From Candidatus Sigynarchaeum calidifontis (lineage in GTDB: Archaea; Asgardarchaeota; Lokiarchaeia; Sigyniarchaeales; Sigyniarchaeaceae): 26,642 nt of DNA. Positions within the stretch are counted from its first letter, which is position 1, and each line of letters starts with the position of its first letter. Below the pieces are notes generated by a model. The model saw only the letters and a list, made by a program, of their open reading frames with translations, had not been told where the DNA came from and did no database searches. The translations under genes and the position numbers were made by a program. Positions 1-10,115 of this stretch are shown here, in pieces. Where the stretch lies: contig JAUQYZ020000062.1 of assembly GCA_030587475.2 (NCBI GenBank), positions 1 to 26,642 on the forward strand. The letters run 5' to 3'.

Positions 1-1418
1 AGCGCGCCGTGGGAGACAGCGGGCGTGTTCCAGCGCGCGGTGTACTGTTGCACGAACACCGCGTCCACCGTCGGTGCCCAGAGGGTGGCGTCGGTCCAGC
101 CCTCGGCGACCGACGGATCGTCGCCGATCGCCCGCAGGAACTCCGGGGAGGCGATGTCGCCGCGGGCGAAGAGCGACGCGAGGCTCTCCTCGACCGTATT
201 CTCCGTGATGCCGAGCCGCCGCGCGAGTTCCTCGAGGGCAATGGTTCGATAGGCAGTGACGATCTGCCCGATCTCGTCCTTGAGCGCTCCGTCGGTCATG
301 TACTCTCGTTTCTGGGTGAACACGCCGCGCAAGCGGCCTTGCTTGACCAGCTCGTGCAAGACACTCCGGATGAGCTCGATGGCAACTCCAAGCTCCTCGC
401 CGATGGTCTCGAGGCGGAATTTCTTGTGCTGTTCCGCGTAGTCGTACACGATGTCCATGAGCTTGCTCTTCGTGTAGACCTTGTTCCCCTTGACCGCGAA
501 GAAGCCGTCGATGTCGCGTGTCTTGAGCAGCGTGGCGAGTATATCCTTGATGATCTCGGCGTGCACGTCATGCGCGGCGGAGAAATCGTTGATGTCGATC
601 TCGCCCTGCGTGTTCGCGAGCTGGATGAGCTTGTTCTGCATGAAGGTCGTCGCGTAGTAAAACTTCTTTTGCCGAGAGAACGTGCCCCGCAAGCGCTCGT
701 TGCGGATGATCTCGTACATGAGCTTGAGCGCCTGGTCGAGGGTCACGCCCACGTTTTTCGCCAGTGCATCGACCGAGATGTACCCGCTCGTCTTGACTTG
801 CTCGGACACGCGGGATTTCAAGCCGGGATCGATGTAGGTGAAGAGCTTGTTCTGCTCGTCGATGATGCCGCCGAGGTTGTAGTCCTTCACGAGCGTCTCG
901 AGCAGCCGCGGGACGTCGACCTCGTCCATCTTGACGATGCCGCCGATCGTGGAGAAGCTGATCGTGCCGGACGACTTTAGCTTGGAAGTGAGGCAGCTCG
1001 GGCAAAAATCTTCCCCCTGGAGTTTCTTGAGCTTCCCGTCGCACACTTTCGGCTGCCTGGCGATGCCGATCTTGGTCGCCTCCTTGAGCACGATCTGGTC
1101 GGCCAAGTAACAAATCATGGGCTGGGCATCGAACGAGTTCCAGCCGCATTTCTCGCAGCGCAGGTAATGCTGGCCCGCGGGCAGCTTGTCGAGGCGCAAG
1201 GTGCCGGCGCATTTCGGGCAGCTCGATTGCGGGACGGTCGGGCACGTGTTGTTGAACTTGAGCGCGGTTTCCCGCAAGTGCGACGCGCCGCACTTCTGGC
1301 ACTTGTACTTCTCGTTCGTGATGACGTGGATGCGGCAGTACCCTTTCTGGCAAGTGGAACATTGATAATCGTTTTTCGAGAGGGGCGTGCCGCACACGGC
1401 GCAGTTCGATGCTACCAT
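1..1418 (-). CDS. Multi-zinc-finger protein with five tandem PCI/UFL1-DDRGK-like winged-helix repeats (3' end runs off the window)
   Basis: My translation from the ATG at 1418 is open to the window edge (about 472 codons): MVASNCAVCGTPLSKNDYQCSTCQKGYCRIH...CQKC...CPKC...CEKC...CPSC, then ~60-aa repeats ending LVKDYNLGGIIDEQNKLF, IIRNERLRGTFSRQKKFY, LLKTRDIDGFFAVKGNKV, LVKQGRLRGVFTQKREY and YRTIALEELARRLGITENTVEESLASLFARGDI. It is missing from the ORF track because there is no stop codon. TATA box at 1460-1469. Confidence 0.85.
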   Translation of the reverse strand, partial: MVASNCAVCGTPLSKNDYQCSTCQKGYCRIHVITNEKYKCQKCGASHLRETALKFNNTCPTVPQSSCPKCAGTLRLDKLPAGQHYLRCEKCGWNSFDAQPMICYLADQIVLKEATKIGIARQPKVCDGKLKKLQGEDFCPSCLTSKLKSSGTISFSTIGGIVKMDEVDVPRLLETLVKDYNLGGIIDEQNKLFTYIDPGLKSRVSEQVKTSGYISVDALAKNVGVTLDQALKLMYEIIRNERLRGTFSRQKKFYYATTFMQNKLIQLANTQGEIDINDFSAAHDVHAEIIKDILATLLKTRDIDGFFAVKGNKVYTKSKLMDIVYDYAEQHKKFRLETIGEELGVAIELIRSVLHELVKQGRLRGVFTQKREYMTDGALKDEIGQIVTAYRTIALEELARRLGITENTVEESLASLFARGDIASPEFLRAIGDDPSVAEGWTDATLWAPTVDAVFVQQYTARWNTPAVSHGA

Positions 1419-1708: not shown

Positions 1709-2242
1709 ATGACCGCAAGGGAACCCGCGACGAGCATGACGATGGCATTGCCTGGCGACGAAAACGGCCAACCCGACCTGGAGCTGACGAAATCATTCAT
1801 CGACTTGATAGACAAGGCCGTCGCCAATGATTTCATTGTCAAGGAGATCACCGAGGAGGACAGGGCGAACGACTTCTACAAGTCCTTGAAGTTCACGCTG
1901 ACCTTCAACCAGATCAAGATACTCTACGAGCGGAAGGTCATCACGCATCTCTTCATCCTGCCGAAGATTCAATACCTGTTCGGCTTCCGCCCGAAGGAAG
2001 GGCTGTGCTTGCTCGTGAACAAGAAGGTGCACAAGCACGTGCTCTGCGACGGGCCGCTCGCCGAGCTGAACGAGAAATGCTTCCTGGTCAACAACCTCCA
2101 ATTCTTGCTCGTGCAGTCCGACGCGTTCAAGGTCTGGTCGTACGTTCCCGCGTGCCCGTGCGACCAGCGATGCGCGAACACGCCGAAAGCATTGGAACTG
2201 CGCACGAAGCTGTACGTGGAGAAGGACGAGGACGAGCGTTGA
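1709..2242 (+). CDS. Hypothetical protein (Cys-containing C-terminus, CPCDQRC)
   Basis: 177-aa ORF with genome-typical codon usage and an upstream TATA box; no family recognised. Confidence 0.75.
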   Translation: MTAREPATSMTMALPGDENGQPDLELTKSFIDLIDKAVANDFIVKEITEEDRANDFYKSLKFTLTFNQIKILYERKVITHLFILPKIQYLFGFRPKEGLCLLVNKKVHKHVLCDGPLAELNEKCFLVNNLQFLLVQSDAFKVWSYVPACPCDQRCANTPKALELRTKLYVEKDEDER

Positions 2243-2466
2243 ATACACTTGCTTGGCGGTGCACGGGTCTATAGCTTCATTATATATCTCTGCCATTTAG
2301 CGCAATTCGAATAGCCGGGACAAATCCAGACTCTATCTCCATTATCTGCCTAGAACATTCATGACTTTTTCCATCTTTTCTTGGTCCACTTTCAATTCCT
2401 ACAGCGGTACAATGAGCATGCTAAATCATAAATGTACGAAAGCAGTGTTATCTCGTGGGGATATCC

Positions 2467-2832
2467 ATGCCGCGAACCCTTGATGATGTCATTGAAATGG
2501 CCCGAAACGACAAGGACGTCCTCGCGATCGTTTTGTTCGGTAGCAGAACAAAAGGCGATGTATACAAGGATACCGACATCTGCCTCGTGACGAGGAACGG
2601 CTGTCCCCAAGACAAGCGGCTTCAATACCTTGCAATCTTTCCAAAATCGTTTGATATTCACGTTTTCGACGATTTGCCACTATACATCAAATCCAGGGTG
2701 ATGAAAGAGGGCAAGATCCTATTGAACAAGGATTTCCAGGGCGTGTTTGAAAAGTACTACCAGACGATAAAGGATCTTCGCCTTTTCGAGCCTCACTTCG
2801 ACACGTATCTCGGGATGACAACCGATGGATGA
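2467..2832 (+). CDS. Minimal nucleotidyltransferase (MNT/MntA-type antitoxin)
   Basis: LFGSRTKGDVYKDTDICL matches the GS...DxD Pol-beta motif, with later FDIHVFDDLP; overlaps the downstream HEPN gene. Confidence 0.9.
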   Translation: MPRTLDDVIEMARNDKDVLAIVLFGSRTKGDVYKDTDICLVTRNGCPQDKRLQYLAIFPKSFDIHVFDDLPLYIKSRVMKEGKILLNKDFQGVFEKYYQTIKDLRLFEPHFDTYLGMTTDG

Positions 2833-3247
2833 ACGACGCATATTATCCAAGCTACGCGAGATCGAAGCGTATCTTCAAGAGATGGAGGAACTCCGGCCGT
2901 CATCCTTCGAGGATTACCAGAAATCTTTGCAATCACGACGTGCTGTAGAACGTGAATTTCAAATCTTGATAGAAAGCGTGATTGATACATGTTACATGCT
3001 CACGAGCGAGTTGCGCATCGGTCCGCCAGCGGATGATGAACACATGCTTGATTTATTAGCGGCTAAGCTGCCCGTGGTAGAAAAAGTCAAGGGGATGAAA
3101 GGGTTTCGTAATATCCTCGTGCACAAGTATGGCGTCATCGATGATATCAAGGTATATTCGTTCCTGGAGGAAAACATGGGTGACTTCGCGGAATTCCTCC
3201 AATCTATTCGAGACTTTTTAGATTCCCATAAAAAACGGAAGAAATAA
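2825..3247 (+). CDS. HEPN/DUF86 (HepT-like) ribonuclease toxin
   Basis: AVEREFQILIESVID and GFRNILVHKY (Rx4H-Y motif); paired with MNT as a type VII TA system. Confidence 0.92.
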   Translation: MDERRILSKLREIEAYLQEMEELRPSSFEDYQKSLQSRRAVEREFQILIESVIDTCYMLTSELRIGPPADDEHMLDLLAAKLPVVEKVKGMKGFRNILVHKYGVIDDIKVYSFLEENMGDFAEFLQSIRDFLDSHKKRKK

Positions 3248-6500: not shown

Positions 6501-7838
6501 ATGCCAATCAAAGTAGCATTCATGCAGCTATCGTCCTGCTGGGGATGCCACCAGAGCCTGCTCAACTTGCATCTCGGCTTGCTCCCGGTGCTTCCCGAGC
6601 TGGACATCGTGTATTGGCCCGCGGTCGTGGACTTCAAGCTCTCTTCGCTCGAAGGCCGCCCCGACCAATCCATTGACGTTGGATTCTGCGAGGGCATGCT
6701 GCGAACCGAGCACGACGTGCACAATGCCAAGACCATGAGGGCAAAATGCAAGATCCTCATCGCGTTCGGCACGTGTGCGACTTACGGCAGCGTCAAGGGC
6801 CTCGCCAACCAATGGTCGCGGGAGGAGCTCTTGCAGCGAAAGTTCCAGCAAACCGAGAGCACGGCAGAACCGCTGGACATGAACACGAAGCGCGACCCGG
6901 AGCTCACGCCGATCGCCGAATCGGTCGTGAACCTCGACAAGGTCGTCAAAATCGACGCGTACTTGCCCGGCTGCCCGCCGCGCAAGGAAAACATTCTCGG
7001 CGCCGTCGCGTTCCTCATCAAGAAGGACCCGACGACCATGAAGAAGGATAGCAACGTGTGTGCCACCTGCAAGGCCAGCCCATGCCTGCTCGAGAAGGGC
7101 AAGCTGTGCTGGGGCGAAGTCACGGCAGGCGGCTGCTCGCTCATGTGCCCCGGGGATAATTTGACCCCTTGTACAGGATGTTTCGGCAAGTCCAACAAGC
7201 CAGACGCCGCGAAGGCCGCCAAGATGAAAGCCCTCCTCGATGCCAAGAAGGTCGGCGCGGAGGACGCGAATCTCGTGGCGCAGTTCATCTTGCTCTACCA
7301 CGGGCTGCCCCCGCAAGGCTCGCTCTACCTTGCCGGCGACCCGCTGCGCAAGCTCGCGCTCGGTGCCAAGATGGACTTCTCGGACGACGTGGTCGGCTCG
7401 TCGTTGAAGACGCTCGCCGGCAACCCGAACTTTAAGTTCACGAACAGCAACGTCTGTGGCACGTGCGACCGCAACGGCAACATGAACAAGAAGATGACCC
7501 AGATCAAGCGATACTACGAGGGGCCCGTGTACGACACCGGCACGTGCTTCATCAATCAAGGGTACATTTGCATGGGCCCCGTGACCCAGGCGGGCTGCGG
7601 CGCCATCTGCCCAAACAAGGGGAATACTATCTGCAATGGATGTTATGGGCCTGTTTTTGGCGTTAATGAACAAGGCGCGCGCGGCATCAGCACGATCGCG
7701 AGCCTTGCCGACGTGAATATCGATGCCGTAAAAGACGGCATCCTCGATCCTGTCGGGCTTTTCTACCGCTACACGCTGGCCGCGTCCGAGATCAACAAGA
7801 AGGTCAACGACACCAAGGGAGGCGAGAAGAAACAATGA
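6501..7838 (+). CDS. mvhG: F420-non-reducing [NiFe] hydrogenase small subunit (MvhG/VhuG-like) with duplicated C-terminal Fe-S module
   Basis: SSCWGCHQS, IVYWPAVVDFK, AFGTCATYG, PGCPP, then two copies of SNVCxxC...C..Gx.CxGxVTxxGCxxxCP...CxGCxG. Confidence 0.9.
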   Translation: MPIKVAFMQLSSCWGCHQSLLNLHLGLLPVLPELDIVYWPAVVDFKLSSLEGRPDQSIDVGFCEGMLRTEHDVHNAKTMRAKCKILIAFGTCATYGSVKGLANQWSREELLQRKFQQTESTAEPLDMNTKRDPELTPIAESVVNLDKVVKIDAYLPGCPPRKENILGAVAFLIKKDPTTMKKDSNVCATCKASPCLLEKGKLCWGEVTAGGCSLMCPGDNLTPCTGCFGKSNKPDAAKAAKMKALLDAKKVGAEDANLVAQFILLYHGLPPQGSLYLAGDPLRKLALGAKMDFSDDVVGSSLKTLAGNPNFKFTNSNVCGTCDRNGNMNKKMTQIKRYYEGPVYDTGTCFINQGYICMGPVTQAGCGAICPNKGNTICNGCYGPVFGVNEQGARGISTIASLADVNIDAVKDGILDPVGLFYRYTLAASEINKKVNDTKGGEKKQ

Positions 7839-8353
7839 TGTCCGACCTCGAATTCAAGCGACAGATCTACGAGTCGTACATGCACAGTGCCATCCGATAT
7901 TGCTACCAGTGTAGCCGTTGTGATGAAAATTGCCCCGTGCACGCGGTCACCGCGGCCTATAGTCCGCGCCAGAACATTCTCAGGTCGCTGCTGGGCATAA
8001 ACTTCATCTCCGCGGATGATCGCCTTGCCATCTATGGTTGCACGGTTTGCGACACGTGCGACGAGGTTTGCCCCAACAAGATCCCGCTCACGCACATCTT
8101 CGCCGTGCTGAAGAACATGGCCGCCGCGAAGAACATCTCGCCCGACAGCTTCAAGGGCCAGGGGAAGGCCGTGCACGACAATGGAACGGCCATTCCCATT
8201 AGCCCCCCGATTGCACGTCGCAGGGCGGCGATGGGGCTTCCGGAGAAATACGACCTGCCCGTTAGCGAGGTGCAAGCCGTCATGAAGGCTGTCGGCTTCG
8301 AGGACAAGCTGGCCAAGCTCACGATAGAGCCAAAGAAAACCACGGAGGCATGA
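7835..8353 (+). CDS. hdrC: Heterodisulfide reductase subunit C
   Basis: CYQCSRCDENCP and CTVCDTCDEVCP (two [4Fe-4S] clusters); 4-bp overlaps with both neighbours. Confidence 0.92.
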   Translation: MMSDLEFKRQIYESYMHSAIRYCYQCSRCDENCPVHAVTAAYSPRQNILRSLLGINFISADDRLAIYGCTVCDTCDEVCPNKIPLTHIFAVLKNMAAAKNISPDSFKGQGKAVHDNGTAIPISPPIARRRAAMGLPEKYDLPVSEVQAVMKAVGFEDKLAKLTIEPKKTTEA

Positions 8354-9246
8354 ACATAATGGACAAATCGCTGTTTCTTGGCTGCACGATTCCCGGGCGC
8401 ATTCCCTTCGTGGAGAAATCGGCAAAAGTCGTGTGCGACGACCTCGGCATCAAGACGGAGGTCCTCCCCGGCTTCGCTTGCTGCCCCGACCCCGTCGGCA
8501 TGAACGCGCTGGACAGGAACAACTGGCTCGCCCTGGCAGGCCGCAATCTCTGCGTCGCGGAAGCCGCGGGCAAGCCGGTCATGACCCTTTGCACGGGCTG
8601 CGCGATGACCCTCAAGACCGCGAACGACGACCTCAAGCACTCGCACCACGACAAGGAGAAGGTGAACCACGCGCTGAAGGGGGTCAACAAGGAATTCAAG
8701 GGCTCGCTCGACAATATCAAGCACATCGCGCAAGTTCTTTTCGAGGAGATCGGCATCGACAAGATCAAGGCCGCTGTCAAGAAACCCCTCAAGGGCCTCA
8801 AGGTCGCGGTGCATCTCGGGTGCCACTTCTTGCGGCCTTCCGAGGTCATCAAGTTCGACGACCCGTTCAATCCCACGAAGGTCGACGAGATCGTGAAGGC
8901 GGTCGGTGCCGATCCGGTCGATTACACGGAGAAGCTGCTCTGCTGTGGCCACGGGGTTTCGAACGAAAGCGTCGATATTGCCGCGACCATGAACCAGAAG
9001 AAATTCAAGAGTGCAAAAGCCGCGGGTGCACAAGCTTTCGTTGTTCTCTGCCCCTCTTGCTACCTACGCTTCGAGAACGCGAACAGGGACGTGAAAAAGA
9101 AGTTCAACGAGGATTACAACTTCCCCGTGCTCTACCTCACCGACCTGCTGGCCATCGCGTTCGGCCACAGCGGCGACGAGATCGGCCTCAAGGATCACCG
9201 GCCGAGCCCCGCCAAGGCCCTCGAATCGGTGGGTCTCCAAGCTTGA
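8350..9246 (+). CDS. hdrB: Heterodisulfide reductase subunit B
   Basis: Two CCG domains: FLGC...ACCPDP...LCTGC and HLGCH...LCCG...LCPSC. Confidence 0.95.
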   Translation: MNIMDKSLFLGCTIPGRIPFVEKSAKVVCDDLGIKTEVLPGFACCPDPVGMNALDRNNWLALAGRNLCVAEAAGKPVMTLCTGCAMTLKTANDDLKHSHHDKEKVNHALKGVNKEFKGSLDNIKHIAQVLFEEIGIDKIKAAVKKPLKGLKVAVHLGCHFLRPSEVIKFDDPFNPTKVDEIVKAVGADPVDYTEKLLCCGHGVSNESVDIAATMNQKKFKSAKAAGAQAFVVLCPSCYLRFENANRDVKKKFNEDYNFPVLYLTDLLAIAFGHSGDEIGLKDHRPSPAKALESVGLQA

Positions 9247-9262
9247 TTCGTGGCTTGACCCC

Positions 9263-9292
9263 TTCTTGTTTTCCTATTTTTTCTTGTTCTTG
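9263..9292 (+). terminator. T-rich archaeal terminator after hdrB
   Basis: TTCTTGTTTTCCTATTTTTTCTTGTTCTT lies directly downstream of the stop codon. Confidence 0.5.
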
Positions 9293-9344
9293 CCATGGTG
9301 AGCCGATACTTGACACGGGAAGATATAGAAAAAAGGCAATGGCT

Positions 9345-10115
9345 TCAGAGGTCGTCCTCGTCGTCCTCGTCGATGTCGTAGGCGAAGAAAGTGCCCTCCT
9401 CGACTCCAACATCATCATCCTCGCCCGGCTGCACGTCGCCGCGGACGATCTTGCCCCGGTTGCGGTGAATCTCCTCGTCCATTTGCCACTTGACGAGGTC
9501 CTCGATGGTTTGCATCGAGAACGTGGCGTGGATCTCGTCGATTTGCTCCTTGCGCAGCGCTCGGGCCATGTCGGCGGCCGTGTAGAACCACATCTCGTTA
9601 TCCCCGCGACCGGCCGGCCTGCCACCCTCGGCATCCACGTACAAAAGCCCGCCATCTTCCCCCAGCGCGAGCAGTTTTCGCTCGTCGGTCAACTGGTTTT
9701 CCTTGCACCAGATGACGAGCTTCCGATCGTAGACCCGGTACCACCAGCGAAGGAAGTCCTGGTTTCGATACCGGTACGAGCTCACGAAAAACCGGCGTTC
9801 CATCGGGTTCCGCCTGCCCCTCTTGAAAAAATCGAGGATGGTCGGGAACACGTCGCGCTTCCAGAACTGGTGGGCGATGTCGAGGATCTGCGTCGCCTTG
9901 TCCAGCTTTTCGGGCAAAAGCGCCTGCTCGCGCTGTTTCGCCTCGATCAGCGCCCGCCGCTCGCGATCCCGGCGCATTCGATTCGCCATTTCCCTCTGGA
10001 GATCAAGCCTGGCTCTTATCGTGAGCCTTTCCTTGACCTCCTCATCGAACGGATCCTTCGGGTCGGGCTTTGAACCCGACCCTAACTGGTTGTTGTCTAT
10101 GTCTTTCATATTCAT
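9345..10115 (-). CDS. Hypothetical protein (N-terminal charged helix, acidic tail)
   Basis: 256-aa ORF with typical codon usage, ending DIDEDDEDDL. Confidence 0.8.
   Translation of the reverse strand: MNMKDIDNNQLGSGSKPDPKDPFDEEVKERLTIRARLDLQREMANRMRRDRERRALIEAKQREQALLPEKLDKATQILDIAHQFWKRDVFPTILDFFKRGRRNPMERRFFVSSYRYRNQDFLRWWYRVYDRKLVIWCKENQLTDERKLLALGEDGGLLYVDAEGGRPAGRGDNEMWFYTAADMARALRKEQIDEIHATFSMQTIEDLVKWQMDEEIHRNRGKIVRGDVQPGEDDDVGVEEGTFFAYDIDEDDEDDL

Follow-up and report, generated by a model that had tools for sequence, protein, structure and literature searches.

What does the open-ended reading frame at the start of a Candidatus Sigynarchaeum calidifontis contig encode, and how does its product relate to UFL1 and DDRGK1, which together form the eukaryotic UFM1 E3 scaffold? 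The frame lies in a stretch of 26,642 nucleotides (hereafter the window; JAUQYZ020000062.1 of assembly GCA_030587475.2), which is the start of contig C101 in an assembly of 4.99 Mb that is 89% complete. The original prediction, made from the letters of the window, was that a minus-strand open reading frame (ORF) missed by the ORF track encodes five tandem winged helices (WHs) resembling the backbone of UFL1 and DDRGK1, fused to zinc fingers, and that it is a candidate for an undescribed system. We are practically certain of the identity and architecture of the encoded protein, here called the scaffold, which comprises an N-terminal zinc module, five WHs, a linker, an adaptin-type appendage and a Vps28-type C-terminal bundle. 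Taking all evidence together, we lean towards the explanation that the gene, whose 5' half lies in the window, encodes a soluble scaffold of the cog.003822 family that acts as a putative non-catalytic adaptor linked to the endosomal sorting complexes that are required for transport (ESCRT).

The minus-strand ORF runs from position 1418 to the first bases of the window and comprises 472 codons, which are free of stops up to the contig end. Because it is open-ended, the default ORF track leaves it out. As a reference for the structural models and the residue numbering we used P0004, a full-length, 99%-identical homologue of 799 amino acids from a near-identical public genome. Contig C40 of this assembly (G000:C40:1-1230 (+), locus L002) encodes the remaining half of the scaffold (residues 391-799), in an ORF of 409 codons that is identical to P0004 391-799 at 407 of 409 positions. 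C40 opens with a 98-base overlap that is 97% identical to window positions 151-248, with 3 mismatches. The scaffold gene is split by an assembly break at the contig end, and the mismatches in the overlap suggest that strain heterogeneity broke the assembly. DNA alignments show that the match to both the P0004 contig and C40 ends at window position ~150 and that the sequence from 149 to 1 diverges completely; the final 49 codons are accordingly an artefact of the contig end, and the fifth WH is 12 residues short in the window. The diverging piece, for which neither a second copy in the assembly nor a plasmid match was found, is probably an assembly chimera. The predicted ORF is real, with 1418..150 as its authentic part. 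It had also been called unannotated, which is correct in so far as it is missing from the ORF track, but NCBI names its relatives 'PCI domain-containing protein'. The closest named relative is a protein of Candidatus Sigynarchaeum springense (91% identical), and the lineage is Sigynarchaeum-like.

For the WH region, an AlphaFold2 model of P0004 was computed with an alignment of 17 orthologues. It contains five consecutive WHs of the order H-beta-H-H-beta-beta, with predicted local distance difference test (pLDDT) values of 80-94 (Table 1). WH1 to WH5 are 18-21% identical to each other in pairwise comparisons and share one invariant glycine in the wing motif L-x-G-x-(I/F). Both the model and the glycine agree with the five head-to-tail repeats of ~60 amino acids and the wing motif that had been read from the sequence, and the span proposed for them, 150..1000, corresponds to WH1 up to the truncated WH5 (residues 140-423).

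Profile and fold comparisons indicate that this WH array is homologous specifically to UFL1 and DDRGK1. Searched against Pfam, the translated window sequence matches PCI (4.9e-16), E3_UFM1_ligase (PF09743; 2.4e-9, 37.7 bits, cut-off 23.2) and DDRGK (8e-8, 32.6 bits, cut-off 27.8), and all 17 orthologues match the same three families; the repeats are thus no chance pattern. In orthologues from the sister family, scores rise to 71 bits (E 1.7e-19) for E3_UFM1_ligase and to 57 bits for DDRGK. When the family profile was compared with all PDB sequences, only DDRGK1 and UFL1 chains were found at E<=0.01, among them the DDRGK1-UFL1 chimera 8b9x at 1.6e-9 (1.3e-13 over 202 profile positions with a broader profile); no protein of the proteasome lid, CSN, eIF3 or ESCRT-II and no SelB appeared in these searches at that threshold. 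The same picture is obtained at the level of the fold. The first Foldseek match is the 8b9x chimera (3e-11, TM score 0.71, root-mean-square deviation (rmsd) 3.8 over 251 columns), the top five are all DDRGK1-UFL1 chimera or ribosome-bound UFL1, and the ribosome-bound UFL1 chains 8qfc_B, 8ohd_A and 9gy4_E have E values of 1e-9 to 1e-8. SelB (1lva) ranks 20th (2.8e-4), and the 50 Foldseek matches listed include no ESCRT-II chain; the Pfam EAP30 family matches one of the 17 orthologues. Superposition on 8b9x with VIA, which is independent of Foldseek, gave a Z score of 14.3 over 244 residues. The proposed preference for UFL1/DDRGK1 over generic winged helix-turn-helix (wHTH) domains, SelB and ESCRT-II is therefore borne out by the best profile and fold matches, and the HMMER alignment agrees with the proposed resemblance of GGIIDEQNKLF and of the DDRGK motif.

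The likeness to PCI proteins of the lid, CSN and eIF3 is of a different kind. Single WH units match the PCI WH, WH5 above all (Pfam PCI 3.7e-19 on P0004 383-427, and up to 84 bits overall), and WHs of CSN and of the proteasome lid superpose with Z scores of 11-12.8 and rmsd values of 1.0-1.3 (VIA). PCI proteins consist of a helical solenoid and one WH, whereas the scaffold has five WHs and no solenoid, and its PCI match covers profile positions 19-83, the WH part.

How do the five units relate to the two eukaryotic chains? In the PDB profile search, human DDRGK1 216-297 falls on profile positions 136-218 and the UFL1 chain 8c0d_A on 220-339, without overlap. The Pfam matches tile in the same way in four orthologues of the sister family; in three orthologues the DDRGK match ends at 200-221 and the E3_UFM1_ligase match starts at 214-230, and in one example, DDRGK profile positions 102-181 align to residues 141-221 (57 bits) and E3_UFM1_ligase positions 26-234 to residues 230-435 (68 bits). 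DDRGK covers WH1 in the orthologues (residues 136/141-200/221), and in the window protein, E3_UFM1_ligase positions 126-233 align to residues 269-374. The two matches meet near residue 220 (window position ~759), in WH2 after helix 2 and before helix 3: the first two helices of WH2 correspond to the C-terminal partial WH of DDRGK1, and the recognition helix and wing of WH2 correspond to the partial WH at the N-terminus of UFL1. In the published DDRGK1-UFL1 structures, this is the site at which the composite WH of eukaryotes is split between the two proteins.

Compared with human DDRGK1-UFL1 (8b9x; 8c0d; 8ohd and 8qfc on the 60S subunit), the scaffold has the rod of tandem PCI-like WHs in common, is collinear with it over ~200 residues and conserves the DDRGK-motif wing. 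In eukaryotes two chains complete a shared WH, whereas the archaeal scaffold is a single chain without membrane anchor. The N-terminal segment of UFL1 is unmatched, as the alignments to Pfam E3_UFM1_ligase begin only at position 13-26 of the profile; in the scaffold, the UFL1-like match is preceded by helices 1-2 of WH2, and these align to DDRGK1. The C-terminal part of UFL1 has no counterpart either, and the archaeal protein instead adds the zinc module, the adaptin appendage and the Vps28 C-terminal domain. The archaeal rod thus looks like an unsplit, single-chain DDRGK1-UFL1, and we infer that DDRGK1 and UFL1 of the eukaryotic UFM1 E3 scaffold may have arisen when a rod of this kind underwent fission inside WH2, an origin that we did not find stated in the literature searched. 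An archaeal chain with an intact WH2 offers a concrete and testable answer to the question why DDRGK1 and UFL1 complete one WH.

The WH array is preceded by a zinc-binding module (Table 1), in line with the predicted zinc-finger fusion. The 16 Cys/His ligands (C6, C9, C20, C23, C28, H31, C40, C/H43, C59, C67, C70, C88, C91, C126, C139 and C142) are kept in 14-17 of the 17 orthologues and in 6-7 of 7 more distant sequences, and the module is a four-site one. It is modelled by AlphaFold2 with pLDDT values of 50-80, and a Pfam search with residues 1-137 returned no family match.

Table 1. Coordinates and strands of the scaffold features in the window, and of the UFM1-type gene cassette found elsewhere in the same genome. 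Residue numbers refer to P0004.
Feature	Position	Strand	Remarks
Authentic scaffold coding part, residues 1-423 of ~799 aa	150..1418	-	421/423 residues identical to P0004
N-terminal zinc-binding module, residues 1-137	1008..1418	-	16 conserved Cys/His ligands in alignments
WH1, residues 138-197	828..1007	-	aligns to the complete DDRGK1 WH including the DDRGK-motif wing
WH2, residues 198-256	651..827	-	DDRGK1 partial WH plus UFL1 partial WH
WH3, residues 257-316	471..650	-	corresponds to UFL1 WH1; 8b9x alignment, E3_UFM1_ligase match, model
WH4, residues 317-375	294..470	-	corresponds to UFL1 WH2; E3_UFM1_ligase match, model
WH5, residues 376-423 of 376-435	150..293	-	most PCI-like unit; cut by the contig break
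Contig-end sequence outside the gene, GC-rich	1..149		unlike the P0004 contig and C40
UFM1-type cassette, contig C221 (G000:C221, locus L014)	7013-10019	JAB and E1 on -, divergent from Ubl and E2	JAB/MPN protease, ThiF-type E1, 92-aa Ubl, UFC1-like E2

The C-terminal half of the scaffold, encoded on C40 outside the window, was modelled separately (residues 462-799, 80 diverse homologues; pLDDT 93.3, predicted TM score 0.85). It consists of an adaptin/COPI-type appendage, that is, an Ig sandwich followed by a platform, and of a four-helix bundle like that at the C-terminus of Vps28. Foldseek matches to the appendage include those of COPI, alpha-adaptin, beta2-adaptin and gamma-COP (7e-11 to 2e-8) and BBS9 (5e-8), and with VIA the AP-4 beta platform (Z 13.4) and alpha-adaptin (Z 12.7 over 203 residues, both subdomains) were matched. 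The appendages of adaptins, COPI and the BBSome (1w80, 1e42, 1pzd, 2mj7, BBS9 in 6vbu) have the same order of an Ig-type sandwich and an alpha/beta platform, and in BBS9, as in the scaffold, a helical domain follows the appendage. Unlike these proteins, the scaffold possesses neither a HEAT-solenoid trunk nor a beta-propeller; identity is 10-14%, and the orientation of the appendage subdomains differs, as seen from the rmsd of 12-14 Å when both are aligned together. The bundle superposes on the C-terminal domain of Vps28 in 2j9u (Z 12.6, rmsd 2.2, 92 of 94 residues) and 2j9w (Z 14.2; both VIA); for the two structures, the alignments cover 92-95 of 94-99 residues, and rmsd values are 1.8-2.2. 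In orthologues, positions 88-182 of the Pfam VPS28 profile are matched, while the N-terminal ESCRT-I core (1-87) is unmatched. Conservation within the protein is strongest in the appendage and Vps28-like half, and the appendage module was found in 647 representative proteins, of which many are much longer. P0004 has no predicted transmembrane segment (maximum Kyte-Doolittle value of 1.42 for a 19-residue window, none above 1.6). This half, which lay outside the DNA on which the original prediction was based, points to ESCRT and sorting.

A protein of this architecture has been catalogued before. The annotation line of asCOG cog.003822 lists zinc-binding domains, an E3 UFM1-protein ligase 1 domain, Adaptin-C and Vps28-C (Makarova et al., 2024). 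Compared by that line, all four named parts occur in the same order in the scaffold, and both come from Asgard lineages of the Lokiarchaeia type; unlike the catalogued entry, the Sigynarchaeum-like copy is divided over two contigs in the assembly. In addition, the origins of UFL1 and DDRGK1 have been placed in Asgard archaea, with the suggestion of an ancestral function independent of UFM1 (Picchianti et al., 2023). The idea of an undescribed system could thus not be upheld, and the value of the present analysis lies in the collinear tiling of DDRGK1 and UFL1 and in the negative phyletic coupling described below rather than in the discovery of a gene.

What might such a protein do? Asgard multidomain proteins that combine Vps28-C, an adaptin appendage and HTH or PCI domains have been interpreted as ESCRT-linked, ESCRT-0-like adaptors, and an association of Vps28-C/appendage proteins with ESCRT-II has been proposed (Makarova et al., 2024). 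Yeast two-hybrid experiments showed an interaction of Asgard ESCRT-I (Vps28 and/or Vps23) with the ESCRT-II protein Vps22 (Hatano et al.). Adjacent genes for a Vps22-like protein and Vps25 are present on contig C70 of the same genome, and of the 31 genomes sampled from the order, 29 were found to have a Vps22-like gene. We tentatively propose that the scaffold is a soluble, non-catalytic adaptor, in which the Vps28-like bundle would dock the protein on ESCRT-II and the appendage would serve as a hub for partners with short motifs. The rigid WH rod would hold the zinc module, possibly a reader of cargo or of a tag, at a distance.

A number of points weigh against parts of this interpretation. 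The identity with the human proteins is only 12-16%, and structural superposition favours a register that is one unit off (8b9x on model residues 181-438; VIA). As the units are repeats, a one-to-one register with DDRGK1 and UFL1 is not unique; Pfam DDRGK, Pfam E3_UFM1_ligase and the separate PDB chains, three profile sources that are independent of one another, all agree on the collinear register, which we adopted for this reason. The Vps28-C assignment rests on the fold, for which other four-helix bundles score Z values of ~11, and orthologues reach 22.7-24.3 bits on the Pfam VPS28 profile, below its cut-off of 24.5; a search of the genome with this profile returned nothing at E<=0.1. No ESCRT gene adjoins the scaffold gene in the five loci examined, and the loci of close relatives show local synteny only with MvhG-like/HdrCB genes and an M28 peptidase. 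The binding steps of the adaptor mechanism are proposals.

Given the homology of the rod to DDRGK1 and UFL1, one might instead expect a forerunner of the UFM1 E3 scaffold, in which the WH rod recruits a UFC1-like E2 charged with a Ufm1-like tag and directs conjugation. The genome does carry a candidate set of partners. A cassette on contig C221 (Table 1) codes for a JAB/MPN protease of 446 amino acids, a ThiF-type E1 of 253, a ubiquitin-like protein (Ubl) of 92 and a UFC1-like E2 of 197 amino acids, the gene of the last overlapping the Ubl gene by GTGA. The E2 has sequence matches in the PDB to UFC1 only, its Cys152 is invariant, and its relatives, which all go by the name 'hypothetical protein', occur in records of Sigyn-, Prometh-, Hod- and Lokiarchaeal origin, Lokiarchaeum ossiferum among them. 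UFC1 has been described as restricted to eukaryotes (Picchianti et al., 2023), and Asgard homologues of Ufm1 have been published. Members of the Ubl family share an invariant C-terminal ...IDQGxVG, behind which 0-3 residues remain. The 92-residue Ubl, alone or as a profile, has no Pfam or PDB sequence match, and the Pfam Ufm1 profile does not match anything in the whole genome; the only signals within the family are TUG-UBL1 at 0.001 in five members and Ufm1 at 0.1 in one. Its assignment as Ufm1 is accordingly based on context, on the VG at its C-terminus and on the literature.

The distribution of the genes speaks against such a ligase. Of 151 genomes sampled from the phylum, 24, all from one order, contain the scaffold, and 11, mostly from families without the scaffold, contain the UFC1-like E2; in the family f2, 21 of 25 genomes have the scaffold and 2 of 25 the E2. 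The two phyletic patterns are decoupled, and no Ubl, E1 or E2 gene lies beside the scaffold in five orthologous loci, so that the survey of neighbourhoods suggested along with the original prediction came out negative. The parts of UFL1 and DDRGK1 credited with ligase activity and ribosome binding are the N-terminal UFC1-binding helix and the C-terminal domain of UFL1 and the membrane anchor of DDRGK1, and none has a counterpart in the scaffold; the unmatched N-terminal segment of UFL1 is the UFC1-binding helix itself. We therefore consider a role as proto-E3 unlikely in general, and an E3 function in this genome would be possible but unsupported. A more elaborate version is that, in genomes with both, such as the present one, the rod acts as an E3-like platform for the UFM1-type cassette (UBA5-like E1, UFC1-like E2, Ufm1-like tag and JAMM protease), and that tagged targets are passed on to ESCRT-II by the appendage and the Vps28-C tail. 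We regard this combination as a long shot, but if true, the eukaryotic UFM1 ligase would descend from an ESCRT-coupled tagging adaptor by fission in WH2 and loss of the tail.

Alternatively, the rod could bind the large ribosomal subunit in a Ubl-independent manner, as UFL1-DDRGK1 does on the 60S subunit. The fold matches to ribosome-bound UFL1 mentioned above are compatible with this possibility, and so is the suggested UFM1-independent ancestral function (Picchianti et al., 2023). However, the matches to UFL1 span ~285-289 alignment columns of chains of 631-692 residues. Past the WH rod, the scaffold has no UFL1-related Pfam family, its C-terminus being the adaptin appendage and Vps28-C, and Pfam matches to Ribosomal_S25 are sub-threshold and reflect a generic WH similarity. 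The parts that make the main contacts to the 60S subunit are the C-terminal domain of UFL1, unmatched in the scaffold, and the long helix of DDRGK1. A ribosome scaffold thus appears quite improbable to us. That zinc ribbons and tandem wHTH domains make the protein a regulator that binds DNA or RNA, as the many weak Pfam wHTH matches on single units (DeoR, PafC, GntR, FeoC, TrmB) and the JGI auto-annotations of relatives as 'DtxR family regulator' or 'biotin operon repressor' might imply, is very improbable, as these matches lie at or below the cut-offs or are confined to one unit, those that exceed the threshold and span several units are to the protein-scaffold WH families PCI, DDRGK and UFL1, and the most conserved half is the trafficking-type appendage with Vps28-C.

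The ESCRT-linked adaptor remains the reading that we prefer. As one genome encodes the rod, a UFM1-type cassette of E1, E2 and tag, and ESCRT-II, whether the rod binds the E2, the tag, the ribosome or ESCRT-II can be addressed with the proteins of one organism, or with those of cultured relatives such as Lokiarchaeum ossiferum, which encodes a relative of the UFC1-like E2.

Several relatives illustrate how the parts of the scaffold are used in other combinations. A 626-residue paralogue in the same genome (G000:C89, locus L007:223-2100 (+)) has double zinc ribbons (Pfam DZR), one PCI-like WH, the appendage and a helical bundle, and is a short-armed version of the scaffold. At their N-termini, the large relatives P0036, P0043, P0055, P0076 and P0037 (959-2169 amino acids) possess FG-GAP, Ig-like or DUF4350-type domains, and all five have one internal transmembrane segment before the appendage. 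In P0036 and P0043, an N-terminal hydrophobic segment and a second transmembrane segment are followed by DDRGK/UFL1-like WH arrays and the appendage; the membrane-anchored topology of the large relatives recalls that of DDRGK1. Other proteins with appendage and helical bundle, such as P0039, P0041 and P0061, have a further C-terminal tail of ~165-300 residues, and these tails match no Pfam family at E<=0.01, with one far sub-threshold Cor1 match on P0039. A protein encoded on contig C88 (G000:C88, locus L005:1483-2232 (-)), directly downstream of a SepSecS-like gene, matches the NCBIfam entry 'Sel_Asgard putative selenocysteine system protein' with 182 bits and is homologous to the platform and Vps28-C-like part of the scaffold (E 1.9e-9); the name Sel_Asgard seems to rest on gene context only.

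With regard to the neighbourhood in the window, an ORF of 177 amino acids (1709-2242 (+)), divergent from the scaffold gene, was considered as a conserved partner and rejected, as it belongs to no Pfam family and is non-syntenic in five genomes of the sister family. In close relatives it lies beside the scaffold gene (161-177 amino acids), and elsewhere it is found on another contig in one genome, with 55% identity. By position and length relative to the near-identical contig L003, window positions 2455-3247 hold a pair of Polbeta nucleotidyltransferase and HepT-like genes, and positions 6501-9246 an Oxidored_q6 (MvhG-like) gene, behind which lie Fer4 and CCG-domain (HdrC/HdrB-like) genes. In several relatives, this MvhG/HdrC/HdrB-like trio keeps its synteny with the scaffold gene.

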